The notes beneath the pieces are model-generated. The model searched no databases, was not told the origin of the DNA, and saw nothing but the letters and a program-made list of their open reading frames with translations. 32,000 nt of DNA from Gammaproteobacteria bacterium (GTDB lineage: Bacteria; Pseudomonadota; Gammaproteobacteria; Pseudomonadales; Halieaceae), in the NCBI GenBank assembly GCA_030433415.1, contig JAUIMF010000011.1, positions 1-32,000 of the forward strand. The letters run 5' to 3'. The position numbers were made by a program, and so were the translations under genes. Below are positions 1 to 17,659 of this stretch, piece after piece. How positions within the stretch are numbered: the first letter of the stretch is position 1; each line of letters starts with the position of its first letter.

Positions 1-513
1 ATCAAAACCTTCTATCGGCACAGGAAGCATATCCGCCTTTACAAGGTGCACGGCTCGCTGAACTACTTTTTGCATCGGGATGCTGTCATTGAAAACAACG
101 CTTGGATGTGGAACCCGCCCGATTTCGCTGAGCGCGTGATGATCACCCCAGGGCTATCGAAGTATCAGGCGCTTCAACGATACAGACGTGAGCTGCTTCA
201 GTTTGCAGATGATGCTGTAGATGGAGCCACACACTTTCTATTCCTCGGCTATGGCTTCAATGATAGCCACTTAGAGGAATACATAAAGCGGAAGCTAGTC
301 ACGCAGTCCAGCCAAGGACTGATTGTGACGCGGGACTGCAATCCACGAATAGAGTTATTGCTTGAAGAGGCAGATAACCTCTGGCTGATCTGCAAAGAGG
401 AAAACGGCGATGGCTCTCGAATTTTTAACAGGCGTCATTCTGGATGGTTGTCACTGCCAAACCAGAAGCTGTGGGACGTTCGTGACTTCACCACTCGGAT
501 TTTTGGAGGATGA
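1..513 (+). CDS. SIR2-like (SIR2_2-type) protein, C-terminal part. The reading frame is open from base 1, so the 5' end lies outside the window.
   Basis: Frame 1 is open from position 1 (IKTFYRHRKHIRLYKVHGSLNYF...). The YKVHGS motif and the later FLFLGYGFNDSHLEEYI motif resemble the KLHGS and hhhGYSxxD signatures of defence-associated SIR2 domains. The stop codon overlaps the next start (ATGA at 510-513), and the next gene is a HerA-type ATPase, the known SIR2-HerA pairing. Confidence 0.6.
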   Translation: MKTFYRHRKHIRLYKVHGSLNYFLHRDAVIENNAWMWNPPDFAERVMITPGLSKYQALQRYRRELLQFADDAVDGATHFLFLGYGFNDSHLEEYIKRKLVTQSSQGLIVTRDCNPRIELLLEEADNLWLICKEENGDGSRIFNRRHSGWLSLPNQKLWDVRDFTTRIFGG

Positions 514-2252
514 CCATGCCAATCTTTACATTCGACGCCTCATATTTGCTCGGCAAAGTCCGCTCGGTAGATACACGCAAGGTTAATGTGCAGGTCAAGA
601 GCGATGAAGACCTGCGCAAGGCGCGTGTTGGACAACTGGTCGCCCTGGATCTTCCGGGTGCCACTGAAGAGTGGCTGATCGGCATCATTGAAAAAGTTGT
701 AAAAACGCCGGTTCTGGAAGAAATAGCTGTTTTGGAAGAGCAGGACCCAGAAGAAGATAACACCCTGGATTTGCCTAGAGAAAGTGTTCACAACACCGTT
801 CAGCTCACCCTGGTGGGAACCGTTTGCCTGACGGTAGAAAATAGTGCCCGGTTTTCCCGCTCTTTGGTGCAGGTTCCAGAGATTGATGCCCAATGTCACA
901 TCCTGCGGGATGCACAACTGCAATCGTTCATGAATTTGCTTTCCGCCGAGGGGAAAACGGATCATTCGTTGGAGATAGGATGCTACACCATCGATGAAAA
1001 TGCCAAGGCATACCTCGACGGAAACAAGCTTTTTCAGCGCCACGCAGCTCTTTTGGGAAGTACTGGATCGGGAAAGTCCTGGACTGTTGCGTCAATTCTT
1101 GAGCAGGCGGGAAAGCTGCCTTCGTCCAACCTGATCGTATTCGACTTGCATGGCGAATATCGAAAACTGGGTTATGCAAGGCATCTTCGTATACCCGGGC
1201 CTGAAGAGTTGGGTAGTTCAGATCATTCGCTCCTGTTCCTGCCTTACTGGCTTCTCAATGCCGAGGAGCTGCAAGCCATGTTCATCGACAGAAGTGAGTT
1301 CAGTGCTCATAACCAGGTGATGGCATTCCAGGACACTGTCGTCGCTGAGAAAAGAAGTGTTCTGGAGTCGCTCGGGAAAAACGAGGTGCTCAATGCATTC
1401 ACCTTGGACAGCCCGGTACCTTTCGATATTGAGAAGGTGCTCAATGAACTGAAGCGTTTGAACGAAGAAATGGTGCAAGGATCAAGAGGCGAGAAGCAAG
1501 GCCCATTTTATGGCCAATTCAGTCGTCTATTGCTGCGCCTTGGCAGTAAAGTGAGCGACAAGCGTTATGGCTTCCTTTTCCAGGCTCCCGAAGCACATCA
1601 TGACTATGGGGCCATGGCGAACCTGGTCAGACGCCTTATGGATTTCTCGGAGCAGAATTCACAGATTAAAGTCATCGACTTTTCTGAAGTGCCTGCTGAC
1701 ATTCTCCCGGTCATCATCGGTTTGGTGGCTCGAATCATTTATCAAGTCCAGTTTTGGACAGATCGCGATAGGAGGCAGCCTCTTGCTCTAGTGTGTGATG
1801 AGGCACACCTCTATCTCCCCAAGAAAGATGGGAAGAACCCCGTGGAGCAACGTGCAATCGAGAACTTCGAAAAAATCGCGAAGGAAGGCCGTAAGTATGG
1901 TGTCGCGCTGTTTGTGATCAGCCAGAGGCCGGCTGATGTCAGTACAACCATACTCAGTCAGTGTAACAACGTCATTGCCCTTCGCCTAACCAATGGGGAC
2001 GACCAGAACACTGTTAAGAGACTGATGCCAGAGAGCCTCGAAGGGCTCATGGATACGCTACCCATTTTGGATATTGGTGAAGCCTTGGTCGTTGGTGACG
2101 CAGTGCTGCTACCAAGCCGAATCCGAATTCACGAACCAACAGAAAAACCACTCAGCGCAACCATAGACTTTTGGGATGAATGGAGCAAAGACCCGGATGC
2201 TCCCGACTTTGACAAGTCGGTGGAGAACATGCGCAGACAGAATAGAGTATAA
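510..2252 (+). CDS. herA: HerA/DUF87-family P-loop ATPase (FtsK-HerA superfamily), partner of the SIR2 protein
   Basis: Walker A is GSTGSGKSW and Walker B is LALVCDEAHLYLP. A VISQRPADVS segment and an N-terminal barrel-like region (GKVRSVDTRKVNVQV...LIGIIEKV) are typical of HerA. GGAGGA at 505-510 favours the in-frame ATG at 516 as the true start, while the ATG at 510 overlaps the upstream stop. Confidence 0.8.
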   Translation: MTMPIFTFDASYLLGKVRSVDTRKVNVQVKSDEDLRKARVGQLVALDLPGATEEWLIGIIEKVVKTPVLEEIAVLEEQDPEEDNTLDLPRESVHNTVQLTLVGTVCLTVENSARFSRSLVQVPEIDAQCHILRDAQLQSFMNLLSAEGKTDHSLEIGCYTIDENAKAYLDGNKLFQRHAALLGSTGSGKSWTVASILEQAGKLPSSNLIVFDLHGEYRKLGYARHLRIPGPEELGSSDHSLLFLPYWLLNAEELQAMFIDRSEFSAHNQVMAFQDTVVAEKRSVLESLGKNEVLNAFTLDSPVPFDIEKVLNELKRLNEEMVQGSRGEKQGPFYGQFSRLLLRLGSKVSDKRYGFLFQAPEAHHDYGAMANLVRRLMDFSEQNSQIKVIDFSEVPADILPVIIGLVARIIYQVQFWTDRDRRQPLALVCDEAHLYLPKKDGKNPVEQRAIENFEKIAKEGRKYGVALFVISQRPADVSTTILSQCNNVIALRLTNGDDQNTVKRLMPESLEGLMDTLPILDIGEALVVGDAVLLPSRIRIHEPTEKPLSATIDFWDEWSKDPDAPDFDKSVENMRRQNRV

Positions 2253-2254
2253 GC

Positions 2255-5017
2255 ATGAAAGATCAACTGAATTTTGGGCAGACAGAAGCATCCACCCAAC
2301 CGGTGGAATGCCTGGGGAAAACCTTCCCGAATGATGAAGCACGGCGCGAGCATTTTCTAAATCTGTTGGCTGAAAAGCTGAAAGATCCGGAATTCCGAAA
2401 GCAGGAGGGCTTTCCGCAAGGTACGGATGAAGCCATTCTGGCCATGTCTGATCCACCGTACTACACCGCTTGCCCGAATCCTTGGTTGGCTGATTTCGTC
2501 GGACACTACGGCAAGCCATATGATCCTTCGGTGAAATACAGCCGAGAGCCTTTGGCAATTGACGTGTCGGTCGGCAAGACCGATGCTATCTACAAGGCAC
2601 ATTCTTACCACACTAAGGTTCCTCACTTGGCAATTGTGCCGTCGATTTTGCACTACACTGAGCCCGGAGATATCGTGCTCGATGGCTTTGCCGGCTCAGG
2701 TATGACCGGCGTGGCGGCACAATGGTGCGGCAGTGCGCCTGCGACTTACCGACATGAGCTGGAGATGGCCTGGAAGCAGGAAGGCCGCCCAGCGCCCAAG
2801 TGGGGGGCGCGTCGAGCCATTCTAAATGATTTGTCTCCAGCGGCGACATCTATCGCCTCTACTAACAACCTACCATTTGATGTAAATCGCTTTGCTTATG
2901 AAGCCGATAAGTTATTGGCGGATGCTAGGCAAGAACTAGGGTGGATGTATCAAACGAAACACAAAGACGGTACCCCAGTTCATCTTTCATATACAGTCTG
3001 GAGCGAGGTTTTCGTTTGTAAGTCCTGTTCTGGAGAGACAGTGTTCTATGAGGGAGCCTATGACTCTGCGATCAACAAGGTTCGTGATGAAGTCACTTGC
3101 TCAAAATGCGGAGCAATAACCAAAAAAGAGAACATGGATTTGTTGCTAGAGTCATTCATGGATTCCCCCTATAGCCGGATTGAAAAGCGCCCAAAACTCG
3201 TGCCAGTTCTAATCAAATATTCGCTAGGCCGTGCCTCATATTTCAAAGCTCCCGATAGCGATGATATTAACATTATCGAGAAAATCTCTCAGCTTGCCAG
3301 CCCTTCCGGTTTGCCTGTTGATGAGCTTCCCGATTGCCAAATGACGCGGGTGGGAAGAATGCGGACAACTAATACGCGCTGCATTCATCATATGTATTTG
3401 GCGCGAGCGGCACACACAATTTCATACTTATGGGATAAGGCTACACAGATTTCTGATGCGAGACTAAGGGGGGCGATTAGATATTGGTTAGATAGTCAGT
3501 TCACCAATATGTCGATACTGAACCGCTACCGTCCAGAAGTCTCGTTTCCGTACAATCCGCTTTCTGGTGTTTTTTATGTTCCGTCATTGATATCTGAAGC
3601 TGATCCTTTCACGGCTTATGAGAATAAAATTAAGCGCCTTGTTAAAGCATTCAGTATAAGTCACGCCAAAAATGGAGTCCCGGCTATTTCATCTGGAAGT
3701 GCAACCATGCTACCTCTTCCTGATGGAGCTGTTGACTACATCTTTACTGATCCGCCTTTCGGGGAGAACATTTACTATGCAGATTTAAATATTCTTCCCG
3801 AGTCTTGGTATGGTGTGCTAACTGACGCAAGTCCCGAAGCTATTATTGATCGCGTTAGAGAAAAGGGAGTGCCTGAATATCAGCATTTAATGCGTGTATG
3901 TTTTTCCGAATATTACCGTGTCTTAAAACCAGGGCGTTGGATGACGGTAGTATTTTCAAATAGCAAGGCATTTGTTTGGAATGCTATTCAGGTAGCCTTG
4001 CAACAGGCAGGATTTATCGTTGCGGAAGTTACTGCCCTTGACAAAAAGCAAGGGAGTTTTCAACAAGTTGTCTCGCCAAATACTGTCAAGCAAGACCTTG
4101 TGATTTCGGTATACAAACCAAATGGCGGCTTGGAGCAGCGATTTATAGAGCGTGGGGCAACTCCGGAGACAGCTTGGGATTTCGTGCATACACACCTTGC
4201 CCAGCTTTCGGTAACAAAAGTTAAAGGAGGTGATCTGGAATTCATCATTGAACGTGATCCTCGTCGAATCTACGACAGAATGGTTGCATGGTTTGTTCGC
4301 CACGATTCGCCTGTACCCCTATCCAGTGAAGAGTTCCTGCACGGATTGCGTCAGCGATTTCCTGAACGTGATGGGATGATTTTTTTGCCTGATCAAGTCG
4401 GTGCATACGATAGAAAGCGCTCTCAGGCTGTTCAGGCTCCTCAGATGGAGATGTTCGTCTCCGACGAGCGGAGCGCCATCGACTGGCTAACTGATTTCTT
4501 GAAGAAGCGCCCGTCTACCTATCAAGAAGTGCACCCAGCCTTCACTACCCAGATTGGCGCGGGTTGGAAGAAGCACGAAGAGAGACCCGAGCTTTCCGCT
4601 CTGCTGGAAGACAACTTCATCAAGTACGATGGTAGCGGTGATGTACCCAGCCAGATCCACAGCTACCTTTCTACCAACCACAAGCTCCGTGGCCTGGAGA
4701 AAAATCACCCGGAGCTGGTCGCCAAAGCCAAGGATCGCTGGTACGTGCCAGATCCCAACAAGGCGCAGGACTTAGAGAAAAGGCGTGATAAGGCACTGTT
4801 GAAGGAATTCCAGACCTACCTGGCATTCACCGGTCGCCGGCTCAAGGAGTTCCGTCTGGAGGTATTGCGCGCAGGCTTCAAGGATGCATGGGGCAACAAG
4901 GATTATGCGACCATCATCAAGATTGCGCAGAAGATTCCTGACACCGCTTTGCAGGAAGACGAAAAGCTGCTGCTCTGGTATGACCAGGCGCTGACCCGCA
5001 CGGAGGCAGATGTCTGA
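2255..5017 (+). CDS. Large DNA methyltransferase (N6-adenine/N4-cytosine type, PglXI-like) with an internal zinc ribbon
   Basis: The SAM-binding motif I is PGDIVLDGFAGSGMTGVAA (aa ~137-155), preceded by HTKVPHLAIVPSIL. The catalytic motif IV is VDYIFTDPPFGENIYY (DPPF at nt 3749-3760). A CKSC...CSKC zinc ribbon lies at nt ~3017-3109, between motifs I and IV. An extra DPPY tetrapeptide sits at nt 2450-2461. The gene starts 2 nt after the herA stop. Confidence 0.8.
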   Translation: MKDQLNFGQTEASTQPVECLGKTFPNDEARREHFLNLLAEKLKDPEFRKQEGFPQGTDEAILAMSDPPYYTACPNPWLADFVGHYGKPYDPSVKYSREPLAIDVSVGKTDAIYKAHSYHTKVPHLAIVPSILHYTEPGDIVLDGFAGSGMTGVAAQWCGSAPATYRHELEMAWKQEGRPAPKWGARRAILNDLSPAATSIASTNNLPFDVNRFAYEADKLLADARQELGWMYQTKHKDGTPVHLSYTVWSEVFVCKSCSGETVFYEGAYDSAINKVRDEVTCSKCGAITKKENMDLLLESFMDSPYSRIEKRPKLVPVLIKYSLGRASYFKAPDSDDINIIEKISQLASPSGLPVDELPDCQMTRVGRMRTTNTRCIHHMYLARAAHTISYLWDKATQISDARLRGAIRYWLDSQFTNMSILNRYRPEVSFPYNPLSGVFYVPSLISEADPFTAYENKIKRLVKAFSISHAKNGVPAISSGSATMLPLPDGAVDYIFTDPPFGENIYYADLNILPESWYGVLTDASPEAIIDRVREKGVPEYQHLMRVCFSEYYRVLKPGRWMTVVFSNSKAFVWNAIQVALQQAGFIVAEVTALDKKQGSFQQVVSPNTVKQDLVISVYKPNGGLEQRFIERGATPETAWDFVHTHLAQLSVTKVKGGDLEFIIERDPRRIYDRMVAWFVRHDSPVPLSSEEFLHGLRQRFPERDGMIFLPDQVGAYDRKRSQAVQAPQMEMFVSDERSAIDWLTDFLKKRPSTYQEVHPAFTTQIGAGWKKHEERPELSALLEDNFIKYDGSGDVPSQIHSYLSTNHKLRGLEKNHPELVAKAKDRWYVPDPNKAQDLEKRRDKALLKEFQTYLAFTGRRLKEFRLEVLRAGFKDAWGNKDYATIIKIAQKIPDTALQEDEKLLLWYDQALTRTEADV

Positions 5018-5036
5018 TGCAATATGAGGTACGGGG

Positions 5037-6821
5037 ATGAATCAGGACGAACTGCTCGCCCGCCTTGATGGCATCGAATGGAACGACTTCGAGTGCAAGC
5101 GGGCCCAGCGCGGTGTCCCGGAGGATGCCTACAAGACGGTATCTGCCTTCGCCAATACGGCCGGGGGCTGGCTAGTGTTCGGCGTGAGTGAACGTGATGG
5201 CCGTCTTGAAATCACTGGTGTCGAAACACCGGACAAGGTTCAGAACGATTTTCTGGCTGCCTTGCGGGGTGGACAGAAGCTGAACCGTGTGATTGCTGTG
5301 GAGCCTTGCCGGTACGAGATCGACGGCAAGCACGTATTTGCCTTTCATGTGCCAGAAGCGACACGAGCGGACAAGCCGGTATATCTCAAGGGTGACCCAC
5401 GCCAGAGCTATGTGCGGCGTGGCGCGGGTGATGAGCAGTGCACCCAGGGAGAGCTGGAGCGTTTGCTGCGTGATGCTTCGCAGGAGCGGTATGACGGCTT
5501 GGTCTTGTCGAACATTCCGGTGGAGCGCTGCTTCGACCTGGACACGGTGAAGTGGTACCAGGCCCAGTTCGCGCGGCGTAATCCGGAACACAAGGAGATC
5601 GCAGACCCGAGCGAGTTCCTGCTCAACTGGAATTTCATTGTCGAACAGGATGGTACTTTGCTGCCCACCCGCGCCGGTGTACTGCTGTTTGGTGAAGGAC
5701 GCTACGTCCGACAGATTCTGCCTCGGCCGGTGCTGGACTATCAGCGTATCGATACCGCTTTCGAGCGCTGGTCGGCGGAGCAGCGCTGGCATGATCGCTA
5801 TGTGTTTGAGGAAAACATCTTCCAGACCTGGCAAGGCCTGGTGGCCCGCTACATGCGCATTGCCGAGCATCCCTTCGCGCTCGACCCCTCCACCTTGCGC
5901 CGCAATGACGACCCGCCGGATTACGTGGCCTTTCGCGAGGCGGCCATCAATCTGTTGATTCACCAGGACTATGGCGACCATGGCCGCAAGCCATCCATTC
6001 GCTTGTTTACCGATCGCACCATCTTCTGGAATCCTGGGGATGCCTTTGCTACCGAGGCTGAGTTGCTGGACCCCACCGAGAAGGAGGTACGCAACCCCTC
6101 CATCGTTAAAGCGTTCCGGCGTATTGGCTTGTCGGATCAGGCCGGTACGGGTATTCGCGCCATTTTCCGCAACTGGCATGAGCTGGGTCGGGTGCCGCCC
6201 CAGTTGCACAATGACAAGGCGCGCAAACAGTTCGAGCTGGTATTGCTCAATCAGCCCCTGGTAACCGAGGCCATGCAGCATTTTCGCCAGACTATTGGCG
6301 CAAACCTGAACCGGGAGCAGGCGGATGTGCTGGCCTTGGCCCTGGGCCGGGTAGATGGCGAGCGGATAAGCCTGACGGATATTCGTGGCCTGGGGGTTGC
6401 CACCACCCTGCAAGCCAAGCGAATCGCCGATTTCCTGGTTCAGCAGCAACTGTTGCAGGCAGTGAGCGACACCCTGTTTGAGGTGCCAGAAGTGCTGCGG
6501 CAGCGCTTTACGGAGAAGCCGGTGGCCGATGAGGGGGGAGCTACCCCGCAAGAGACCCCTCAAGGTACCCCGCAAGCTGCCCCTCAAGTTACCCCGCAAG
6601 TTTCAACGCTGCTGGCCAAGGTTACCGGGGAGATGACGCGCCAGGAACTCATGGATAGCGTCGGGTTGAAAGATCGCATGCATTTCGCAAAGGCTTACCT
6701 CCAGCCCGCGCTGGATGCGGGGGTCTTGGAAATGACGATTCCCGACAAGCCCCGTAGCGGCAATCAGCGATACCGCCTTACCCCCCTCGGGCAGGCTGTG
6801 ATTGGACAGGGGGATATATGA
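5037..6821 (+). CDS. AlbA_2/Schlafen-like (divergent AAA_4) protein with a HATPase_c_4-like middle region and a C-terminal wHTH, often annotated as RecG-like transcriptional regulator
   Basis: The N-terminus EWNDFECKRAQRGVPEDAYKTVSAFANTAGGWLVFGV matches the AlbA_2 signature (E.K......... .. AFAN..GG.L..GV). The middle region has AINLLIHQDYGDHG...IFWNPGD. The C-terminus resembles wHTH proteins of this family (MTRQELMDSVGLKDRMHFAKAYLQPALDAGVLEMTIPDKPRSGNQRYRLT). The stop overlaps the next start (ATGA at 6818-6821). Confidence 0.7.
   Translation: MNQDELLARLDGIEWNDFECKRAQRGVPEDAYKTVSAFANTAGGWLVFGVSERDGRLEITGVETPDKVQNDFLAALRGGQKLNRVIAVEPCRYEIDGKHVFAFHVPEATRADKPVYLKGDPRQSYVRRGAGDEQCTQGELERLLRDASQERYDGLVLSNIPVERCFDLDTVKWYQAQFARRNPEHKEIADPSEFLLNWNFIVEQDGTLLPTRAGVLLFGEGRYVRQILPRPVLDYQRIDTAFERWSAEQRWHDRYVFEENIFQTWQGLVARYMRIAEHPFALDPSTLRRNDDPPDYVAFREAAINLLIHQDYGDHGRKPSIRLFTDRTIFWNPGDAFATEAELLDPTEKEVRNPSIVKAFRRIGLSDQAGTGIRAIFRNWHELGRVPPQLHNDKARKQFELVLLNQPLVTEAMQHFRQTIGANLNREQADVLALALGRVDGERISLTDIRGLGVATTLQAKRIADFLVQQQLLQAVSDTLFEVPEVLRQRFTEKPVADEGGATPQETPQGTPQAAPQVTPQVSTLLAKVTGEMTRQELMDSVGLKDRMHFAKAYLQPALDAGVLEMTIPDKPRSGNQRYRLTPLGQAVIGQGDI
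6540..6599 (+). repeat. Five tandem 12-nt repeats (nnnaCCCCkCAA) encoding (x-T/A-P-Q)5 inside the AlbA_2 gene
   Basis: The units are gctaccccgcaa|gagacccctcaa|ggtaccccgcaa|gctgcccctcaa|gttaccccgcaa. They encode ATPQ ETPQ GTPQ AAPQ VTPQ, located between the body of the protein and its C-terminal wHTH. Confidence 0.9.
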
Positions 6822-9634
6822 CCAACGTATGGGCGGTAGGCGATTGGTGCTGGCATATTCGCCAGACCGCCCCCTGCCGGGTGGTGGATAGCCAGACGCT
6901 GTGGGGAGAAAACACCTACCGGGTATGGCTGCCGGGCAAGGACGCCGTGGTGCGCGCCCGAGCCCAAGAGCTGGGTTCACTGGCCGACGTGCAGACGACG
7001 GCTGACCAGATTCTGCATACGGCTGCCGCTGCCAAGTTGTGCGATGCGCTGGAGGACAACCTGCTACTGGCCCCGATACAGTCCAGCGTGGTGCCTCTGC
7101 CGCATCAGCTCCATGCACTGAACAGGGCCATGAGCCGAGACCGCATTCGCTACCTGCTTGCTGATGAAGTAGGGCTGGGTAAGACCATTGAGGCCGGCCT
7201 GATTTTGCGAGAACTCAAGTTGCGCGGTATGGTGAAACGCGTGCTGGTGGTGGCCCCCAAAGGTTTGGTGCGTCAGTGGCAGGCGGAGATGCGCTTGCAC
7301 TTCGGCGAGGCGCTTCGCTTTATAGAGCCATCCGACCTGACCGCCTTTCGTACCTGGCGCAACGAGGATGATAATCTGTGGCGGATGCATGATCAGGTTA
7401 TCTGCTCACTGGACTCGGTGAAACCGATCGAGGCCCGTCGTGGCTGGAGCCTGGAACAACTGAACACCTACAACCGCGAACGCTTCGAGGATCTGGTGTC
7501 TGCCGGTTGGGACCTGGTGATTATCGACGAGTCGCACCGTATGGGCGGTAGTACCGAGCAGGTAGCCCGGTACAAATTGGGAGCTGCGTTGGCGGAGGCG
7601 GCCCCCTACTTGCTGTTGTTGTCTGCCACGCCTCACCAGGGCAAGACAGACCAGTTCATGCGCTTGATGCAGTTGCTGGATCGTGAGGCGTTTCCTGACG
7701 AGAACAGTATCAATCGCGACCGGGTGCAGCCTTATGTGATCCGTACGGAGAAACGTTCCTCTATCGATGCCGAGGGACAGCCGCTATTCAAGCCGCGTGC
7801 GACCAAGCTACAGGCCGTGGCATGGCAGGATCGCCATGCCGCCCAGCAGAGACTCTATGAGGCGGTAACCGACTACGTGCGCCATGGTTACAACCAAGCC
7901 ATGGCCGCCAAGCAGCGCCATATTGGATTCTTGATGATTCTGATGCAGCGCCTGGTGACGTCCAGCACGGCAGCCATTCGGGCCACGCTGGAAAAGCGCC
8001 AAAGCCTGCTGGAAGAGCCGCAACTGCAAGCCAGCTTGTTTGATACGGCGAATATGGATGAGTGGGCTGAGCTGGATGGGCAATCGCAGGTCGACATTGT
8101 CGTGCAGGCCAATGGCTGGGAGCAGGAGAAAGCGGAGGTCGACATTCTGCTCGACTTGGCGCGTGAGACCGAGCGGCAAGGGACTGATGCCAAGGCTGAG
8201 GCCCTTCTGGAACTGATCTACAAGCTTCAGCAGGAGGAGAGGGACCCGCAGCTCAAGGTGCTGGTGTTTACCGAGTTTGTGCCCACTCAGGCCATGTTGG
8301 CGGAGCTCCTGGAAAGCCGGGGCTTTTCCGTAGTGCTACTCAACGGCGGGATGGATCTGGATGCGCGAACCAAGGCGCAACAAGACTTTTCTGGTGATGT
8401 CCGGGTGCTGATCTCAACTGATGCCGGCGGTGAAGGTTTGAACCTGCAGTTCTGCCATGTGGTTGTCAATTTCGACATGCCCTGGAACCCCATGCGGCTG
8501 GAGCAGCGGATAGGCCGCGTTGATCGTATCGGACAACCTCATGTGGTGCGGGCCATCAATCTGGTTCTTGAAGACACGGTCGAGCACCGGGTTCGCCAGG
8601 TGCTGGAAGAAAAGCTGGAGGTCATCGCCCAAGAGTTCGGTGTAAATAAAGCGGCGGATGTCATCGACTCGGTGGAAGTGGAGCCAATCTTTGATGAGCT
8701 GTTCGTACATGGTCTGCAGAACCCGAGCCGTATTGACCAGGAATGCGATGCGGTCATCGACCAGGTACGGGATAAGGTGTCAGCAAGCTGCAAGGGTAGC
8801 GATCTCCTGACGGAGGACTACACCCTGGAAGCCGATGATGCACGCAAATGGCGTGATCACCCAGCACAATATTGGCTAGAGCGCGCCATCACCTCGGGGC
8901 TGCCGGCACGTGGTGGTGAGGCTGAAAAGTGCGGTGAGTCCTGGAGAGTGAAGTGGCCGGACGGCAGTGAGTCACCCCGTGTTTGCTTTGATGCACGAAC
9001 CGCTGAACAGCACCCCGAGATCGAGTGGATCACGCTGGAGGACGCTCGTGCCCGCGCGGTCATCAGTGAATTGCCGCGCTGTGTGGCGGGCCAGCCTCTG
9101 CCGATGGTTTCGATGCGTGGCCTGCCTGAAGCGGTTATCGGTGTGTGGTCGCTTTGGGAGATCAGTCTTGACGCGTCCCATGTGTCTGAGCGATTCAGCC
9201 GTCGTCGCTTCCTGCCCGTATTCATTACCGATGATGGTCGCAGCTTTGTACCTACGGCCAAGCGAATATGGGATTTACTGCTGACAGAGCAATTGATTCT
9301 CGCCCCTGAGTTGGAAATGGAACAAGCCGACAACGACTTTGAAAACGCTTTGGCCGCTGCCAGGGGGCAAGGTGAACGATTGTTTGCCGGATTGAAGGAA
9401 GAGCACCATAGCTGGCTTGCCGAGGAGCGCGAGCGAGCACGCTATGCCTTTGAAGCCAGATATCAGGCCATCGGTCGCATTGGACTTCCTGCTGTGAGGG
9501 AGCACAGGCGCAAGCGTTTGGATGCGGAACATGAAGCGCGCATGGCGGCTCTGCTTGAAGCCGAACAGGGCACTCCGGAACTCAATGCAGTATTGATGTT
9601 GCGGATTGGCAGTGTCGGGGGGAATGCAGCGTGA
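6818..9634 (+). CDS. SNF2-family helicase (RapA/HepA-like, in the position of BREX BrxHII)
   Basis: Motif I is LLADEVGLGKTIEA, motif II is DESHRMGG and motif III is LLLSATPHQGK. The helicase C-terminal domain has LISTDAGGEGLNLQ and motif VI QRIGRVDRIGQ. The N-terminus has a Tudor/SH3-like segment as in RapA. About 360 aa at the C-terminus are unassigned and end in a predicted coiled coil. Confidence 0.85.
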   Translation: MTNVWAVGDWCWHIRQTAPCRVVDSQTLWGENTYRVWLPGKDAVVRARAQELGSLADVQTTADQILHTAAAAKLCDALEDNLLLAPIQSSVVPLPHQLHALNRAMSRDRIRYLLADEVGLGKTIEAGLILRELKLRGMVKRVLVVAPKGLVRQWQAEMRLHFGEALRFIEPSDLTAFRTWRNEDDNLWRMHDQVICSLDSVKPIEARRGWSLEQLNTYNRERFEDLVSAGWDLVIIDESHRMGGSTEQVARYKLGAALAEAAPYLLLLSATPHQGKTDQFMRLMQLLDREAFPDENSINRDRVQPYVIRTEKRSSIDAEGQPLFKPRATKLQAVAWQDRHAAQQRLYEAVTDYVRHGYNQAMAAKQRHIGFLMILMQRLVTSSTAAIRATLEKRQSLLEEPQLQASLFDTANMDEWAELDGQSQVDIVVQANGWEQEKAEVDILLDLARETERQGTDAKAEALLELIYKLQQEERDPQLKVLVFTEFVPTQAMLAELLESRGFSVVLLNGGMDLDARTKAQQDFSGDVRVLISTDAGGEGLNLQFCHVVVNFDMPWNPMRLEQRIGRVDRIGQPHVVRAINLVLEDTVEHRVRQVLEEKLEVIAQEFGVNKAADVIDSVEVEPIFDELFVHGLQNPSRIDQECDAVIDQVRDKVSASCKGSDLLTEDYTLEADDARKWRDHPAQYWLERAITSGLPARGGEAEKCGESWRVKWPDGSESPRVCFDARTAEQHPEIEWITLEDARARAVISELPRCVAGQPLPMVSMRGLPEAVIGVWSLWEISLDASHVSERFSRRRFLPVFITDDGRSFVPTAKRIWDLLLTEQLILAPELEMEQADNDFENALAAARGQGERLFAGLKEEHHSWLAEERERARYAFEARYQAIGRIGLPAVREHRRKRLDAEHEARMAALLEAEQGTPELNAVLMLRIGSVGGNAA

Positions 9635-11631
9635 CGAATTCTTCCTGGGTAAACTGTATTCTTGGAGAGTTCCAGTCTGATTTATCTCGACTGTGGATTG
9701 TCTCTGATCCGGATGGCGTCTTGCTTGATGAGCACGTCCTGGCGGGCTTGCGTGAACGTGGCTTTGAAACGCTGCTGTTCGAGGACAGCATAGCGTTTCG
9801 CGCCGAATACGAAGAGCGCTACCGTACAGCCTGGGATCAGGGAGAGGCACCACCGTCCGATGCACTCATTTTGCATCTGCGAGGACATCAGGCCGGCGAA
9901 CTGCCCTGGGACTACTTACGTCATGGGCGCCGCTTAAGCCTGAGCCTGGCGGAGCTACTGCCAAAACTCAGCTATTCGGTAGTGCGGCAACTAGACAACG
10001 AGATGTTGCCTTCCTTGTTCGAAGCGCAGGCTCAGCATGCATCACAAGTCCTGGGAGAAGCAGCCACCAAGGAGTTTGTGCTTACACATATCTTTGAACT
10101 AAGCCCCCATCTGATAAAGCAGCCTGAACACTTTTGGCGAGAATTGCTGCGTTTGCACTATCGCGAGTCTACACTACCCACGGTGCTTGCTCAGTATGTA
10201 GAGCAGGTATTGGGTAGCCAGAGTGCATTCAGAGACGCTCCTATCGCCGAACTCTTCTCGAATAGGAGCCAAACCCTGCGAGTAGTTCAGGATGCCTGGT
10301 ATCGCTACTTGGAAAAACATGGGCTTACTGGAAACCGAGTCGGGGAGCCATCACCGCCGGAATTAAACGTTAAGCTGGAAATTCCATTTAATCACCATGA
10401 TGTCTGGCTGATTGTTGATTCCATGTTCCTGGATGGCACATTGCACCCGCTGGAAGTATCGGGCATATCGGACGCCTTGCCTAAATGGGCCAAAGTGGGG
10501 GTAGTCCAGAACCCGCTTGCGATGCGCACTCTGGTCCTGGACGGTATAAAGGCCCTGGAGGATGAGATTCCTGGCATTGATTCGAGCCATCGTGACTGGG
10601 CACATTTTGCCCGCCGTCTCGGCGAGATCATTTCGCGCTTCAACGGCCTGGATGCCAGCCGTGCGGCAGGCCTGAGGAATGATCTTCTGGCCTTGCAGTG
10701 CCAGGCTGATACTCAGCTACAGGGATGGTTGGTCAAGCACTATTCGGATTTGCCTTCCTTGCCGGTCGTGAAAGGACCGATCATGTTGCATCATGTTCCC
10801 CGTTTTCTGTCGATACGACGAGAACATGGTGAACAGAAAATCGCGCTCCTTCTGTTCGATGGATTGGCCATCGATCAGTGGATTCAGGTCCGGGAGAGCG
10901 TCACCAAGGCTCAACCTCGACTGATGTTCGATGAGCAAGCCTGTTTTGCCTGGCTGCCAACTTTGACATCCGTCTCCAGACAAGCCCTTTTTTCTGGTCT
11001 ACGTCCTCGTGAGTTTGCCGACAGTATTGAAACGACATCCAAAGAACCGGGACTGTGGGATCGTTTTTGGCGAGACCATGGACTGACTTCCAGGGAGGTT
11101 TTCTATCGCAAAGCCATCAAACGAAATGATGATTTGCCTGACCTGGAAGCTGAGTTGTCTAATCCTGCTGTCAAAGTGGCTGGTATTGTTGTCGATACCG
11201 TAGACGAAATGATCCACGGTGCGGTGCTTGGCAAATCCGGTGTGGCCGCGCAAATAACGAAATGGTGCGAATCGGGGTTTATTGAAAGACTGTTCCAGAT
11301 TCTGCTGGGCAATGGTTTCAGTATTTACCTGACAGCGGATCACGGCAATGTAGAAGCGGTTGGCATAGGTCGACCGAACCAGGGCCTTGCTCCTGAACTT
11401 AGGGGTGAGCGCGTACGTGCTTATCGTAGCGAAGCGCTTCTCGCTGAAGCCTTGGCCGCGAATCCGGATGCTTTTAATTTGGATGTTGGCGGTTTGCCAA
11501 CGGACTTTATGCCGCTTTTTGCTGGAGGCCGCGGAGCCTTCGTACCGAAAGATGATCAAATAGTAGTGCACGGCGGGCCATCCGTTGAGGAGCTGATCGT
11601 GCCGTTTGTAAAAGTGAGCTACGTAGATTGA
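9631..11631 (+). CDS. pglZ: PglZ-domain protein (alkaline-phosphatase superfamily, BREX hallmark)
   Basis: PglZ core motifs are present: LLLFDGLAIDQW, LPTLTSVSRQALFSG (the T..SR nucleophile region), VVDTVDEMIHG and YLTADHGN. The GTG start overlaps the SNF2 stop (GTGA at 9631-9634) and is preceded by GGGGGGAA. Confidence 0.8.
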   Translation: MTNSSWVNCILGEFQSDLSRLWIVSDPDGVLLDEHVLAGLRERGFETLLFEDSIAFRAEYEERYRTAWDQGEAPPSDALILHLRGHQAGELPWDYLRHGRRLSLSLAELLPKLSYSVVRQLDNEMLPSLFEAQAQHASQVLGEAATKEFVLTHIFELSPHLIKQPEHFWRELLRLHYRESTLPTVLAQYVEQVLGSQSAFRDAPIAELFSNRSQTLRVVQDAWYRYLEKHGLTGNRVGEPSPPELNVKLEIPFNHHDVWLIVDSMFLDGTLHPLEVSGISDALPKWAKVGVVQNPLAMRTLVLDGIKALEDEIPGIDSSHRDWAHFARRLGEIISRFNGLDASRAAGLRNDLLALQCQADTQLQGWLVKHYSDLPSLPVVKGPIMLHHVPRFLSIRREHGEQKIALLLFDGLAIDQWIQVRESVTKAQPRLMFDEQACFAWLPTLTSVSRQALFSGLRPREFADSIETTSKEPGLWDRFWRDHGLTSREVFYRKAIKRNDDLPDLEAELSNPAVKVAGIVVDTVDEMIHGAVLGKSGVAAQITKWCESGFIERLFQILLGNGFSIYLTADHGNVEAVGIGRPNQGLAPELRGERVRAYRSEALLAEALAANPDAFNLDVGGLPTDFMPLFAGGRGAFVPKDDQIVVHGGPSVEELIVPFVKVSYVD

Positions 11632-12359
11632 ATACCATGAAACCCTCGGCACCTAAAATCGGCTTTGATCGCTTCGTACCGCTCGAATGGGCGACGGCAG
11701 CGCTTGAAGTCCGTGCCGAGTCGAATACCCTGGATGGTTTGAACACTTTGCTGGATCAGGCGGAGCTTGGCGTTGCCGCCCGCAAGAAGACTCGTACAGT
11801 ACTCAACCGGCTTTGGCTGGAACCACGCCCAGAACTGAAGGCCTTCGCTGATCGAGGAGTTGCCATCCATAAAGCTGATCCCAATACTCCCATCGCGGCA
11901 CTGACTTGGGGGATGGCCATAGCAACCTACCCGTTTTTTGGCAGGGTAAGCGAGCTGGTTGGGCGACTTTCCTCTCTGCAGGGTGACTGTGCTTCGGCGG
12001 AAATTCATCGTCGTATGAGTGAGAGTTACGGCGAGCGCGAAGGCACCTATCGAATGACAAACATGGTCTTGCAGTCGCAAGCAAGCTGGGGAGCAATCGA
12101 GCGTGTTGAGAAAGGCAAGCGATTGGTACGAAAACAGCCGATCGTAGTCAGAGATGAGCAGGCTGTAACTTGGCTCATCGAGGCGGCATTGATGTACACG
12201 GGGAAGGCACTGCCGGTGTCTGGCTTGTCATCATTGGCAGTGCTTTATCCATTCATGCTCGACCAGCCATTAAGCTACCTTGTCTCCAGGGGGGCAGGCC
12301 TGAGTGTGAGAGCAGAAGGCGCTGGCAACCAGTTCGTACATTTGAGTGCCACCACATAA
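11628..12359 (+). CDS. Hypothetical protein, last gene of the operon, possibly BrxA-like (DUF1819-like)
   Basis: TTG at 11628 overlaps the pglZ stop (TTGA). An in-frame ATG at 11637 is the more likely start. The size (~240 aa), its position after pglZ and a loosely BrxA-like helical pattern (ARKKTRTVLNRLW...ALTWGMAIATYPFFGRV) are the only support. I cannot confirm the family by eye. Confidence 0.4.
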   Translation: MNTMKPSAPKIGFDRFVPLEWATAALEVRAESNTLDGLNTLLDQAELGVAARKKTRTVLNRLWLEPRPELKAFADRGVAIHKADPNTPIAALTWGMAIATYPFFGRVSELVGRLSSLQGDCASAEIHRRMSESYGEREGTYRMTNMVLQSQASWGAIERVEKGKRLVRKQPIVVRDEQAVTWLIEAALMYTGKALPVSGLSSLAVLYPFMLDQPLSYLVSRGAGLSVRAEGAGNQFVHLSATT

Positions 12360-12393
12360 GGTGGTCTTCAATTCATGAGCCGGATGAGCTGGC

Positions 12394-12753
12394 TCAAGGA
12401 TCGTCAGGGTCGCCCATGTCATGACGCCACTCGTTCTTGTCGTACAGGCCAAAGCCAGAGTGACCTTCACGCCACTCTGGCTCTGCTTCACTGGCATCAT
12501 TCGAGTTAAGCGCAGCCCAAACGACCAAGGTGCCTACAAGTAGGAACCCGACAATCCAGAACCCCGTGATCAGCAAGGCACCGAGCACTCCGAACTTGAG
12601 GCCCCATAGCAACAGACGTCCCACACCAGCAGGCAGTCCTTTCGCAGCCAGCCAATGAATAGCTCGCGTCTCGCGACGAGCAACACCACGCCACATGCGC
12701 CCCAGCCATCGACCGGCGCGCTCGGTTTTCGTAATCGTCGGTGTTGCTTTCAT
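12394..12753 (-). CDS. Small two-TM membrane protein, DUF3742-like (a family typical of PFGI-1/ICEclc-type ICEs, usually next to traI)
   Basis: The N-terminus AGRWLGRMWRGVARRETRAIHWLAAKGLPAG is followed by two hydrophobic helices (LLLWGLKFGVLGALLITGFWIVGFLLVGTLVVWAAL) and an acidic tail (EWREGHSGFGLYDKNEW...DPDDP). This pattern matches my recollection of DUF3742 proteins. AAGAGG lies ~8 nt upstream of the ATG. Confidence 0.6.
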   Translation of the reverse strand: MKATPTITKTERAGRWLGRMWRGVARRETRAIHWLAAKGLPAGVGRLLLWGLKFGVLGALLITGFWIVGFLLVGTLVVWAALNSNDASEAEPEWREGHSGFGLYDKNEWRHDMGDPDDP

Positions 12754-12773
12754 CGCTTTAACCTCTTGGAGGG

Positions 12774-13241
12774 CTATCGCTTCTCCTTCGTCGACCAGTC
12801 GGATCGGCTTGCTGCCACGAGACTTTCCCAGTCATCCGGTGGGTTGCCACGCTGGAGCATCTTCTCGAACACCGCGTAGGGGTCAGACTTGCTGCCCGAC
12901 GACCGTAACGTCTGTTCATCATTGACCCAGGCAAACACGATGGTCTTCGACCTGGAGTCGTAGCGGAAGAACAGCCGGAAGCGCCTTCCGATCTTGGCTC
13001 GCCGCCAGTGCCGGTGCTTTAGCCCTAGCGTGTTGCCCTGCCGGTATTCATCTCGCCCTGGATCTCTGGGCACGATCTCCAGGATCAACTGCGTCAACGC
13101 CCTGAACAATTTGACGTTAGCGTTACTCTCGTAGCCTTTCGGGTCACTCCGCTGAGCCCGCTCGGCGGCGGCGTGCAGCTTCTGCAATTGCTCCACGATG
13201 CAGTCGTGGAACAGCAGTATCCATCCATGGCGCTGCATCAA
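12774..13241 (-). CDS. yhaV: YhaV-family type II toxin (ribonuclease)
   Basis: There is clear similarity to E. coli YhaV: RFRLFFRYDSRSKTIVFAWVNDEQTLRSSGSKSDPYAVFEKMLQRGNPPDDWESL versus RYRLFFRYSEKEKVIILGWMNDENTLRTYGKKTDAYTVFSKMLKRGHPPADWETL. The start overlaps the prlF stop by 4 nt. Confidence 0.9.
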   Translation of the reverse strand: MMQRHGWILLFHDCIVEQLQKLHAAAERAQRSDPKGYESNANVKLFRALTQLILEIVPRDPGRDEYRQGNTLGLKHRHWRRAKIGRRFRLFFRYDSRSKTIVFAWVNDEQTLRSSGSKSDPYAVFEKMLQRGNPPDDWESLVAASRSDWSTKEKR

Positions 13242-13555
13242 AGGGCTACTTCGCCTTCGATATCCTCATTGAGATCCACCGGGTGCTCCAGATTCGCCAG
13301 CATGGCCTGGGCGAGATCGTCCGGCAGGTTGCCAACGTGCTTGCCCTGGCGGATGTCCTGTTCCAGCAATCCCAGGAAGGCACCGATGGCCGGGTCTTCA
13401 TGTTCGGCGTCGGCACGGGTGACGATCACTTCGCCGCCGCGCAGCTCAAAGGACACCTTGCCCCCGGTGGTCACACCCAGGGCCTGTCGAATTGCCTTGG
13501 GCAAGGTGATCTGCCCTTTGGAAGTCAGGGTAGCTTGTTCATGGATACCAGGCAT
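13238..13555 (-). CDS. prlF: PrlF (SohA) antitoxin, AbrB/SpoVT-type DNA-binding fold
   Basis: MPGIHEQATLTSKGQITLPKAIRQALGV...HEDPAIGAFLGLLEQDI resembles E. coli PrlF (LTTESKVTIRGQTTIPAPVREALKL...MNAFLRFLDADI). I chose the start at 13555 because AGGAG lies 7 nt upstream. The longer 159-aa ORF (to 13717) runs through the promoter region. Confidence 0.85.
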   Translation of the reverse strand: MPGIHEQATLTSKGQITLPKAIRQALGVTTGGKVSFELRGGEVIVTRADAEHEDPAIGAFLGLLEQDIRQGKHVGNLPDDLAQAMLANLEHPVDLNEDIEGEVAL

Positions 13556-13591
13556 GGTCAGGCTCCTGTCGGTGATACTCATGCCTATAGA

Positions 13592-13617
13592 GTAAGGATT
13601 ATTCCTTACCTTGTCAA
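13592..13617 (-). promoter_or_regulatory. Putative prlF-yhaV promoter with a palindromic operator
   Basis: The inverted repeat GTAAGGA-ttat-TCCTTAC lies at 13592-13609. On the minus strand it follows a TTGACA box (complement of 13612-17). A weak -10, TACTCT, follows at 17-nt spacing. An operator between -35 and -10 is the usual layout for autoregulated TA operons. Confidence 0.45.
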
Positions 13618-13626
13618 TCCTGGCTT

Positions 13627-13685
13627 CCCTCGGTGTATTTTGCGGTCGCATGGCCCCCTCCTGCTGTTGCTGAAAGCACCGAGGG
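13627..13685. repeat. 9-bp perfect inverted repeat (CCCTCGGTG ... CACCGAGGG) with a 41-nt spacer, upstream of the relaxase gene
   Basis: Read directly: 13627-13635 and 13677-13685 are exact reverse complements. The match extends to 12 bp with one mismatch. The repeat lies in the prlF/traI divergent intergenic region. Confidence 0.6.
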
Positions 13686-13788
13686 TAGACAAGGTACAGC
13701 CTGCCTTCCGCAAACAATACGGAACCGCACGAATCCTATTTATTGTGGCTGGATACCATGGGCTAACTTATACCCGAGGGCTAATCAA

Positions 13789-13831
13789 GGGCCAAAGGGC
13801 TGGGAAGGGGCAAGGGAATGGTAGGAAGGGG
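13789..13831 (+). other. G-quadruplex-consensus purine tract upstream of traI
   Basis: The tract is GGGccaaaGGGctGGGaaGGGGcaaGGGaatggtaggaaGGGG. Five G3+ runs with loops of 5, 2, 2 and 3 nt lie at 13789-13816, and a sixth run is at 13828-13831. It sits 60-100 nt upstream of the traI ATG. Confidence 0.5.
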
Positions 13832-13891
13832 AAAGGCTCTACCCGAAAAGGCCAAAAGGCCCCAGCCCGGTCACACTGTTCGGGGTTTCAG

Positions 13892-15688: not shown

Positions 15689-15691
15689 AGC

Positions 15692-16966
15692 TTAGCCCGC
15701 TCTGCGAGCACGAGCACCAATCTTCTTGGATGTCGGCTTGGAAGCTGACTCAGATGTATTTACAGCCGCCTCTTCTGCTGCCGAAAGATAATCAGCCCAT
15801 GCCTGCATCATTTCACGGCGCTGGGAGAGCAGGATTGCCTTATTGTAAGTTGCGCGCACCTTGTTGCTTTCGACGTGGGCTAGCTGGCGCTCAATGGCAT
15901 CGGGACGGAAACCCTGCTCGTTGGCCCAAGTGGAAAAAGTGGTTCGCCAACAGTGGGGTGTTGTTCTCGGCCCCAGATTCATGTCACGCATGGCATACGA
16001 CAATCTGTTGGGCGTCGTGAACCCCTTGCCGCTACGGTGAGGAAACAGATAGCGCCCACCTTCGGTAATTGGCCGAAGGTCTTCGATCACCTGGATTGCC
16101 TGATCAGAAAGAGGGCAGACGTGGTCGCGTCCGGCTTTCATCTTCTCCCCCGGTCGGCGCCATACTTGTTCCTCAAAATCAAACTCGTTCCACTCTGCAT
16201 CGGCTGCTTCGCCGGGTCGGCAGGCAGTTAGTGCAATGAGTCGCAGACACAGGGCAGTTTCTGGGTAGCCACGGTAAGCCCGAAGCTCTCGATAGAAGGC
16301 GCGGGTCTGCTCGGCGGTCAAGACGGCCTTGCTTTGGCTGGGAGGTATCTTGAGCAGTCCGCGCAGCGTTGGTATCGGGTTGGCGTCGGCCAAGCCCCGT
16401 ACGATTGCATACTCAAAAATTGCGTTCAGGTCGCCCTTCACATGAATCCCGGCCCAGGCACCGTGGGCTTTGCAGGCCTCCAGGACGGGACGTATCTCTT
16501 TGACTCCGATCTCACTGATTGGAATCTCGGCCAGCTTCGGTGCGAGGTATTTCCGGATACGGCTTTCCTTGGCGCGGTACGAGCCTGGCTTGTAGCTCGC
16601 TTTCACCTCAGCCAGATAAGCAGCCGAGACTTTGGCAAAAGAGCTTTCCATGGCTCGCTTGCGTTCTTCGAGTGTCTCGATATTGCGCCGCTTTATCTCT
16701 TGGCGGTCGTGCGATGGGTGAATGCCTTGCTTGACGAGCTGCCGTGCCGAGTCCCGCTCCGTTCGGGCATCTGATAGGCCTACATCAGGGTAGGGGCCGA
16801 TAGCGTAAAGATTCTCCTTGCCATCAATGCGGTACTTCCAGCGCCAGAGCTTGCTGCCATTTGGTTTGACCAAGAGGAACAGGCCGCCGCCATCACTGAG
16901 CTTATACGAGCGTGATTCCGGCTTCGCCGCCCTGACTTTGAGTTCGGTAAGTAGATCCTTTGGCAT
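15692..16966 (-). CDS. int: P4-like tyrosine integrase (DUF4102 N-terminal arm-binding domain plus phage-integrase catalytic domain)
   Basis: The N-terminus LKVRAAKPESRSYKLSDGGGLFLLVKPNGSKLWRWKYRIDGKENLYAIGPYPDVGLSDAR is the classical P4-integrase N-terminal signature. Catalytic residues are present in TACRPGEA, HCWRTTFSTW and LAHVESNKVRATYNKA. The start at 16966 has GGAGG 5 nt upstream. The ORF-track extension to 17098 crosses the repeat/promoter region. Confidence 0.9.
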   Translation of the reverse strand: MPKDLLTELKVRAAKPESRSYKLSDGGGLFLLVKPNGSKLWRWKYRIDGKENLYAIGPYPDVGLSDARTERDSARQLVKQGIHPSHDRQEIKRRNIETLEERKRAMESSFAKVSAAYLAEVKASYKPGSYRAKESRIRKYLAPKLAEIPISEIGVKEIRPVLEACKAHGAWAGIHVKGDLNAIFEYAIVRGLADANPIPTLRGLLKIPPSQSKAVLTAEQTRAFYRELRAYRGYPETALCLRLIALTACRPGEAADAEWNEFDFEEQVWRRPGEKMKAGRDHVCPLSDQAIQVIEDLRPITEGGRYLFPHRSGKGFTTPNRLSYAMRDMNLGPRTTPHCWRTTFSTWANEQGFRPDAIERQLAHVESNKVRATYNKAILLSQRREMMQAWADYLSAAEEAAVNTSESASKPTSKKIGARARRAG

Positions 16967-16991
16967 TGGCACCTCCAGGATGGGGGAGGCG

Positions 16992-17035
16992 GTACCCCCA
17001 AAATTTTTGAGCAGTACCCCCAACTGTACCCCCAA
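16992..17035. repeat. Three perfect 10-bp direct repeats, GTACCCCCAA, upstream of int (candidate arm-type or regulator binding sites)
   Basis: Copies lie at 16992-17001, 17014-17023 and 17026-17035, with start-to-start spacing of 22 and 12 nt. They are 26-70 nt upstream of the int start codon. The adjacent TGGGGG(16981-86)/CCCCCA(16995-17000) pair forms a 6-bp inverted repeat. Confidence 0.7.
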
Positions 17036-17638: not shown

Positions 17639-17659
17639 CATCCGGCAGGGAGGGGAGCT

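Follow-up and report, generated by a model that had tools for sequence, protein, structure and literature searches.

The first 12,359 nucleotides of the 32,000-nucleotide stretch analysed here (referred to throughout as the window; contig JAUIMF010000011.1 of a Gammaproteobacteria bacterium in the family Halieaceae) carry seven co-directional genes, in which a SIR2-HerA pair is joined to genes of a Bacteriophage Exclusion (BREX) system. We describe this array and compare it with metagenome contigs and genomes carrying the same or related genes, designated below by L numbers. The seven genes are as follows.

1..513, plus strand: SIR2 NADase gene, C-terminal 170 of 366 codons (Pfam SIR2_2; PADLOC SIR2 PDLC04086, 265 bits)
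510..2252, plus strand: HerA ATPase, the SIR2 partner (PADLOC HerA PDLC04105, 766 bits, full length; Pfam DUF87 and HerA_C)
2255..5017, plus strand: PglXI, type 3 BREX N6-adenine methyltransferase (PADLOC PglXI, 1327.6 bits, full length; Pfam N6_N4_Mtase)
5037..6821, plus strand: embedded Schlafen/AlbA_2 accessory gene (Pfam SLFN_AlbA_2, HATPase_c_4, Fic-like_C)
6818..9634, plus strand: BrxHII, SNF2/RapA-like helicase (PADLOC PDLC02500, 1418 bits, full length; Pfam SNF2-rel_dom and Helicase_C)
9631..11631, plus strand: PglZ of the BREX-3 type (NCBIfam BREX_PglZ_3, 716 bits; PADLOC PglZ, 781 bits; Pfam PglZ)
11628..12359, plus strand: BrxA, last gene of the BREX operon (PADLOC BrxA PDLC02444, 213 bits, profile positions 2-248 of 251)

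A preliminary description, made from the sequence letters without database searches, had given the positions, junctions and functions of these open reading frames (ORFs). All seven ORFs and their junctions were read back from the sequence, and Pfam, PADLOC and NCBIfam profile searches agree with every domain call, including those of the 666-aa product as PglZ and the 580-aa product as HerA. The SIR2 and HerA genes meet at ATGA (510-513), the HerA and PglXI genes are separated by 2 nt (2253-2254, within TAA-GC-ATG at 2250-2257), and a 19-nt gap (5018-5036) lies between PglXI and the Schlafen gene; the other junctions are ATGA at 6818-6821 (Schlafen/BrxHII), GTGA at 9631-9634 (BrxHII/PglZ) and TTGA at 11628-11631 (PglZ/BrxA). 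Because gene callers applied to identical contigs take ATG 516 as the start of HerA (578 aa, compared with 580 aa from ATG 510) and ATG 11637 as the start of BrxA (240 aa), the 5′ junctions of these two genes may be gaps of 2-5 nt, not 4-nt overlaps. The SIR2 frame is open from base 1 and cut by the window edge, with its first 196 codons lying upstream and its window part corresponding to positions 194-361 of the 361 in PDLC04086; the six complete ORFs are unbroken. The order of the array is not a matter of chance, because all seven genes recur in the same order in Alcanivorax hongdengensis (L001, approximately 82% nucleotide identity) and in distant phyla. As to the further proposal of a single, translationally coupled transcript, the signal scans are compatible with one transcript without proving it: matches resembling promoters (2, with 8.1 in shuffled sequence) and terminators (11, with 12.5) within the array are not above shuffled expectation. 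Scans of contig L081 (described below) likewise stay within expectation, and the scans of both sequences are uninformative on internal promoters.

The array as seen in the window raises the question of BrxC, which the preliminary description reported as not visible. This is true of all 32 kb of the window, in which the two other large ORFs have no Pfam match or are AsmA-like, but it is an edge effect. An exact look-up of the PglXI protein – chosen after the 580-aa HerA gave no exact match, since gene callers take ATG 516 – returned 14 contigs, of which the six listed come from six samples with at most one mismatch; plasmid sequences yielded no megablast hit to window 1-12359. Metagenome contig L081 is the same as window 1-15017 with one mismatch (99.993%) and extends a further 7746 nt upstream. 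On this contig BrxC, OLD-like, HATPase_c, 444-aa, SIR2 and HerA genes follow one another on the plus strand with gaps of 24-66 nt, the gap before SIR2 being 66 nt.

Plus strand, 1241 aa: BrxC, with BrxC-PglY_N and DUF6079 domains, ending approximately 5.9 kb before window base 1
Plus strand, 651 aa: OLD-family ATPase/TOPRIM nuclease (AAA_15/AAA_21)
Plus strand, 629 aa: HATPase_c protein, MutL-like
Plus strand, 444 aa: protein of no family
7159-8259 of L081, plus strand, 366 aa: full SIR2 gene, from gene calls

The L081 DNA examined starts inside BrxC, approximately 190 nt short of its start, and the BrxC product is 94% identical to that of L001, which scores 1790 bits with the PADLOC BrxC model. 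The L001 orthologue of the OLD protein is 88% identical and also has a weak TOPRIM match.

Two readings of the missing BrxC had been offered, with the window edge preventing a choice between them. In the first, HerA and SIR2 stand in for BrxF and BrxC, giving a BREX variant with an NADase arm, and its one point in favour was the absence of BrxC within the window. Because L081 matches the window and encodes a full-length BrxC upstream on the same strand, this replacement is refuted, and a BrxC-less BREX variant is ruled out with it; moreover, related loci that have SIR2-HerA next to PglXI and enough upstream DNA all carry both BrxF and BrxC. We therefore give the replacement almost no credence. 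In the second reading, a type 3 BREX harbours a complete SIR2-HerA system at its brxC-pglX hotspot; L081 and two relatives support this. In the closest genome, that of A. hongdengensis (L001), the order is WYL-BrxF-BrxC-OLD-SIR2-HerA-PglXI-Schlafen-BrxHII-PglZ-BrxA; in the sister contig L167, TraU, TraG_N, BrxR (WYL), BrxF and BrxC occur in that order, the BrxC-OLD DNA is 98.3% identical to that of L081, and the Schlafen and BrxHII proteins are approximately 98.6% identical to those of the window element. Extension upstream thus delivered BrxC on L081, and BrxF in the relatives only: it adjoins BrxC upstream in both L001 and L167 (PADLOC BrxF, 147 bits each), and was also found in nearly all surveyed loci with upstream DNA. 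For the exact element, BrxF and BrxR are inferred from these two relatives.

With a presumptive BrxR and BrxF, followed by BrxC, PglXI, BrxHII, PglZ and BrxA, the host system is, on sequence grounds, a type 3 BREX. PglZ passes the curated BREX-3 model (NCBIfam BREX_PglZ_3) at 716 bits, with a cutoff of 250. The FAGSG and DPPF motifs of PglXI and the GLGKT and DESH motifs of BrxHII are intact. The PADLOC model matched by BrxHII, PDLC02500, is named BrxHI|BrxHII and has BrxHI in its description line; the same protein scores 209 bits with NCBIfam RapA, below the cutoff. BrxA had no Pfam or NCBIfam match in the profile searches and is recognized by its PADLOC model only. Within PglXI, identity to the L001 orthologue falls to 22-38% over residues 151-550 (window 2705-3904), compared with 70-95% at both ends and 86-92% in the flanking genes; it looks as if the nested target-recognition region, across the central 400 or so residues, has been swapped, and methylation specificity with it.

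The SIR2 and HerA genes are adjacent, in that order, and match PDLC04086 and PDLC04105 over their full lengths. SIR2 contains YKVHGS in the window and TPNYD in L081, which we take to be its catalytic motifs, and both align to the equivalent motifs of PDB chain 8yhx_G. HerA has a Walker A motif (GSTGSGKS) at residue 183 and a Walker B motif (LVCDE). Similarity to solved chains extends down to 1.7e-81 for HerA and is weak for SIR2 (E 1e-8). The HerA protein fits the PADLOC model of SIR2-partner HerA (766 bits) as opposed to DndH (16 bits), and both proteins fall far under the cutoffs of the NCBIfam anti-phage equivalog models (41 versus 500 bits for SIR2, 334 versus 850 bits for HerA), so that these models are of no use for assigning membership. 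The window pair is a distinct SIR2-HerA subfamily.

A HerA search with one genome per species yielded 80 loci, approximately 29 of which have a HerA of at least 73% identity; in a neighbour-joining tree of this one protein (200 bootstraps) the latter form a clade with 100% support. The contexts of this clade are varied.

8 loci: BREX-3, BrxF-BrxC-[cargo]-SIR2-HerA-PglXI-[cargo]-BrxHII-PglZ-BrxA
8 loci: Hma/DUF499, HmaA helicase-[PDC-S02]-SIR2-HerA-HmaB methylase-HmaC
2 loci: operons with SNF2 and type III restriction-modification (RM)-like genes
1 locus: type I RM
Remaining loci: standalone (e.g. L020 and L025, flanked by genes on the opposite strand) or on contigs whose shortness precludes a call

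The eight BREX-3 loci span Gamma- and Betaproteobacteria, Syntrophales, Planctomycetales, Bacillota, Clostridia, Verrucomicrobia and Synergistales. Where HerA identity was lower than 73%, the loci gave no match to the BREX-3 and Hma core queries with which they were screened (RM contexts lay outside that screen), bar one weak HmaB-like match. The BREX-embedded HerA proteins are monophyletic in none of the 200 bootstraps, on which ground we reject a single entry of SIR2-HerA into BREX-3 followed by vertical descent only, and one clade with 95.5% support mixes Hma (L002), type III RM-like (L004, L005) and BREX-3 (L008, L072) hosts. SIR2-HerA is a portable module and not a substitute for BrxC. 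Beside the cassette in two loci there are fragments of HmaB in addition to an intact copy (L012, 8458-8760, 15475-15591 and 16988-17113; L023, 11871-12365). They comprise N-terminal stretches of 99 or 165 residues and two pieces of 40 residues from the C-terminus, with 5′ and 3′ pieces flanking the pair, and resemble scars left by recombination that replaced blocks repeatedly.

A second, non-orthologous SIR2-HerA subfamily occupies the same slot in the sister element L167 (11994-18247), where a 459-aa SIR2 (PADLOC PDLC04079) and a 710-aa HerA (PDLC04098, approximately 30% identical) lie between OLD and PglXI. The PglXI gene of L167 is split by a frameshift into 251 and 643 aa, through real inactivation or assembly error. 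Homologues of this second HerA were sampled for context – a small sample, picked for long contigs – and in all seven distinct places the pair is embedded. Apart from L167 these are:

L169/L170: BrxR-BrxF-BrxC-SIR2-HerA-...-PglXI-...-BrxHII-PglZ
L168 and L172: SNF2 helicase-SIR2-HerA-type III methylase-Res
L171 and L173: type 1 BREX, between PglX and PglZ
L104: BREX-3, directly after BrxC

The L169/L170 protein is also on record from Pseudomonas aeruginosa. At 7610-11103 of L171 a PIN/DUF2281 pair as well as DUF1016 and Schlafen genes adjoin SIR2-HerA; at 7637-11127 of L173 the preceding PglX-like gene encodes only 643 aa and a 595-aa gene of no family follows HerA, and the pair may interrupt PglX.

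The regularity of these placements invites a different interpretation, namely that SIR2-HerA is not a mere passenger but a guard or effector arm of its methylation-based host, for instance held inactive by BREX or the methyltransferase and depleting NAD+ once a phage anti-BREX factor disables the host, as PrrC does within EcoprrI. Both non-orthologous subfamilies occur inside BREX or RM-like operons: the second in seven of seven places (L104, L167, L168, L169/L170, L171, L172, L173; BREX-3, BREX-1 or SNF2/type III RM-like), and that of the window in 19 loci (8 BREX-3, 8 Hma, 2 type III RM-like, 1 type I RM) and also in the window itself, among approximately 29. In most of the BREX-3, Hma and type III RM-like loci the pair stands directly 5′ of the methyltransferase, often with overlapping or few-nucleotide junctions, although other genes intervene in L004, L007, L023 and L169/L170; SIR2-HerA also co-diverges with the BREX core proteins, and a guard role has been discussed for embedded systems (bioRxiv 10.1101/2024.01.29.577857). 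Against such coupling, same-clade pairs occur as isolated units flanked by genes on the opposite strand, their protein lengths unaltered (L020, L025), host type switches within the 95.5%-supported HerA clade, an intact pair is present in just one (L104) of 80 sampled BREX-3 loci, with remnants only in L138 and L098, the second-subfamily sample is small and was chosen for long contigs, and SIR2-HerA works when cloned alone (PMC11514289). We regard functional coupling as unlikely. That these lineages are specialised residents of BREX-1, BREX-3, Hma/DUF499 and SNF2/type III RM operons, usually just 5′ of the methyltransferase, with expression driven by the host operon and possibly wired to the host as a guard, we hold to be just as doubtful; the filling of one slot by two non-orthologous subfamilies could nonetheless reflect selection for partnership rather than hotspot traffic.

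The traffic itself is seen in a survey in which metagenome contigs were scanned with a BrxC alignment, yielding 80 type 3 BREX loci whose neighbourhoods were annotated mainly by tblastn. Both BrxC and PglXI are visible in 55 of them; the two are neighbours in 17, and in 38 they are set apart by 0.25-7.8 kb of varied cargo. Genes identified in this gap include Schlafen-like genes, the HATPase_c gene, a lone 444-aa gene (L088, 82% identity) and PDC-S02; within many of the gaps no query matched anything, and an intact SIR2-HerA pair of the window clade is present in none of the 55. The PglXI-BrxHII junction is direct in 14 of 28 surveyed loci and filled in the other 14. Both junctions are cargo hotspots. 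In the window element the BrxC-PglXI hotspot holds the OLD-family gene, the HATPase_c gene, the 444-aa gene and the SIR2-HerA pair, and the Schlafen/AlbA_2 gene is a second embedded cargo in the PglXI-BrxHII hotspot; its product combines Schlafen/AlbA_2 and HATPase_c_4 (minimal histidine-kinase-like) domains with a C-terminal winged helix-turn-helix (wHTH). As expected of embedded cassettes, these genes lie between host core genes in the same orientation and vary among related loci. SIR2-HerA is also lost by deletion, as indicated by two remnants between BrxC and PglXI: in L138 (6188-6593) the N-terminus of SIR2 is joined to its C-terminus, after which come the first 42 HerA residues, and L098 (6697-6825) retains a short SIR2/HerA piece, the pair being otherwise absent.

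Relative to L001, the HATPase_c and 444-aa genes (L081 3844-7092, window-equivalent -3902 to -654) are a clean insertion. The 444-aa protein has no Pfam, PADLOC or NCBIfam family and the 629-aa HATPase_c protein no PADLOC or useful NCBIfam match; the two genes are candidates for embedded defence genes. In L108, L109 and L111 the HATPase_c gene is accompanied by a Schlafen-like gene, and in L004 HerA is followed by a homologue of it at 31% identity. The operon is a mosaic in GC content (L081 1-20105), with OLD, the HATPase gene, SIR2, HerA and PglXI at 48-50%, the 444-aa gene at 54%, PglZ and BrxA at 53-55%, and BrxC, the Schlafen gene and BrxHII at 58-60%; the rest of the window is at approximately 60%.

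A composite operon of this kind might also be a decaying, cargo-accumulating mosaic, part of which no longer functions. The frameshifted PglXI of L167 (251 + 643 aa), an internal stop in the BrxC of L014 (hence left out of the alignment) and the SIR2-HerA and methyltransferase scars of other loci point this way; in the window, by contrast, the six complete ORFs are intact, the SIR2 frame is open and the motifs checked in HerA, PglXI and BrxHII are retained, and the same sequence occurs on 14 contigs, the six listed from six samples having at most one mismatch. Decay of the window locus is very improbable.

Beyond BrxA the window continues (12394-17098) with genes of a conjugative element, identified by Pfam matches together with gene calls on L081.

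12394-12753, minus strand: DUF3742 (Pfam)
12774-13241, minus strand: YhaV toxin (Pfam)
approximately 13238-13651, minus strand: PrlF antitoxin (Pfam)
approximately 13892-15688, plus strand: TraI_2 relaxase (Pfam)
15692-17098, minus strand: tyrosine integrase (Pfam)

Together with TraU and TraG_N just upstream of BrxR in L167, these genes show the BREX locus to be cargo, carried close to the end of an integrative conjugative element (ICE). The YhaV/PrlF pair and DUF3742 sit between the BREX operon and the relaxase gene, on the strand opposite to the operon. No tRNA gene lies beside the ICE integrase (15692-17200); the only one in the window, tRNA-Ala GGC at 28265-28340, is 11 kb away. Beyond the integrase, the region 17204-22329 has a strong AT skew (+0.2) and three plus-strand ORFs of 144, 1179 and 391 aa with no Pfam match, and the 1179-aa product, an acidic protein with abundant Ala, Gln and Glu, has an N-terminal sequence resembling a signal peptide.

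We conclude, with a probability of approximately 0.8, that this is a complete type 3 BREX on an ICE in which SIR2-HerA is a nested, independent and portable module accompanied by other cargo. Window 1-12359 would then make up two-thirds, at the 3′ end, of a single long defence operon with all genes in one direction. PglXI is predicted to methylate the host, with its nested recognition region determining the motif, and BrxC, BrxHII and PglZ to block unmethylated incoming DNA. SIR2-HerA would assemble as the known HerA-SIR2 complex and deplete NAD+ on infection, acting as an independent abortive-infection layer on the BREX transcript under the BREX regulator; in published homologues, HerA binding activates Sir2, and co-expression of just these two proteins depletes NAD+ and confers protection on cells otherwise devoid of the system (PMC11514289). 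Further independent layers co-transcribed with BREX may be provided by the OLD nuclease and the Schlafen protein, and SIR2-HerA would be gained, exchanged and lost at the hotspots by recombination.

Several points weigh against this conclusion. BrxF and BrxR are seen only in relatives, whose BrxC proteins are approximately 94% identical to one another, and the independence of SIR2-HerA from BREX is itself inferred. Within sub-lineages of BREX-3, the identities of SIR2 and HerA run parallel to the groupings of BrxC, BrxHII and PglZ, and the pair usually adjoins the methyltransferase gene on its 5′ side, a few nucleotides away; this long co-inheritance with BREX-3 is real and could reflect functional coupling. 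The trees are neighbour-joining trees of one protein, the neighbourhoods were annotated mainly by tblastn, and type 3 BREX is described as 'less explored' (PMC12839542).

The apparent anomaly of a BREX without BrxC is removed, being a product of the window edge alone. What is documented in its place is an intact, ICE-borne, multi-layer operon comprising methylation-based exclusion, an NADase module, an OLD nuclease and a Schlafen-type effector; the layers appear to share one transcript and are probably under one WYL regulator. The nested modules of this compact type 3 BREX locus, which would make a convenient construct, may act independently or back one another up. Recurrent SIR2-HerA nesting, exchange between sister elements and deletion scars together describe a turnover of cargo at fixed BREX-like junctions; the regular nesting of SIR2-HerA beside methyltransferases is probably hotspot traffic alone and less probably a functional partnership.

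Type 3 BREX, reportedly defined by Goldfarb et al. in 2015 as brxF-brxC-pglXI-brxHII-pglZ-brxA, has since been re-analysed (PMC12839542). The window element resembles it in having the core genes in canonical order, with a BREX-3 PglZ, a DUF6079-type BrxC, a PglXI with nested recognition region and a RapA-like BrxHII, and in the WYL/BrxR regulator of its close relatives; it differs from the canonical system in its ICE location and in the five or six extra genes at two junctions. The SIR2-HerA anti-phage system is said to have been described by Gao et al. in 2020, with structures 8su9, 8j4u and 8yhx. The window pair shares its adjacency, gene order, SIR2 NYD and HG motifs and HerA Walker A and B motifs; unlike that two-gene unit, it belongs to a distinct subfamily below the NCBIfam equivalog cutoffs and sits inside the operon of another system. 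PrrC is a suicide effector in the EcoprrI type I RM system and is held in check by its host; the window locus is similar in nesting an effector in a methylation-based immunity operon, whereas SIR2-HerA, in published homologues, shows activity as a cloned pair on its own. BREX-related capture (BRC) systems also place a HerA-family ATPase and homologues of PglZ, BrxC and BrxA in one locus, with a DndH-like HerA as a core component, GNAT/TGT and no PglXI (PMC12839542). In the window HerA pairs with SIR2 and is portable, and this HerA type (only 16 bits with DndH) together with the presence of PglXI rules out membership in BRC.

The preliminary description took the architecture to be undescribed, but defence genes embedded in BREX, Hma and RM operons are a published pattern to which it belongs (bioRxiv 10.1101/2024.01.29.577857; PMC12839542; PMC3506569). 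Embedding occurs commonly among Hma, BREX, DISARM and RM systems, with 62.7% of Hma systems containing embedded genes and 96.7% of embedded genes sharing the host orientation (bioRxiv 10.1101/2024.01.29.577857); Septu, for example, lies between HmaA and HmaB in Halomonas (PMC11232893). As BREX 'backup effectors', OLD/TOPRIM modules have been reported in 1242 taxa and Schlafen-HK-wHTH proteins (HK, histidine kinase) in at least 1017 (PMC12839542). The main texts of the literature searched (an incomplete set, with figures outside it) do not name SIR2-HerA, sirtuin or NAD in connection with BREX cargo. The window cargo follows the published pattern, lying between core genes on the same strand, varying at the same junctions and including the OLD/TOPRIM and Schlafen-HK-wHTH types described there. 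The window locus is a further example of known nesting, to which it adds, beyond the published embedding texts, the recurrent placement of SIR2-HerA 5′ of the methyltransferase and the exchange of two SIR2-HerA subfamilies in one slot.

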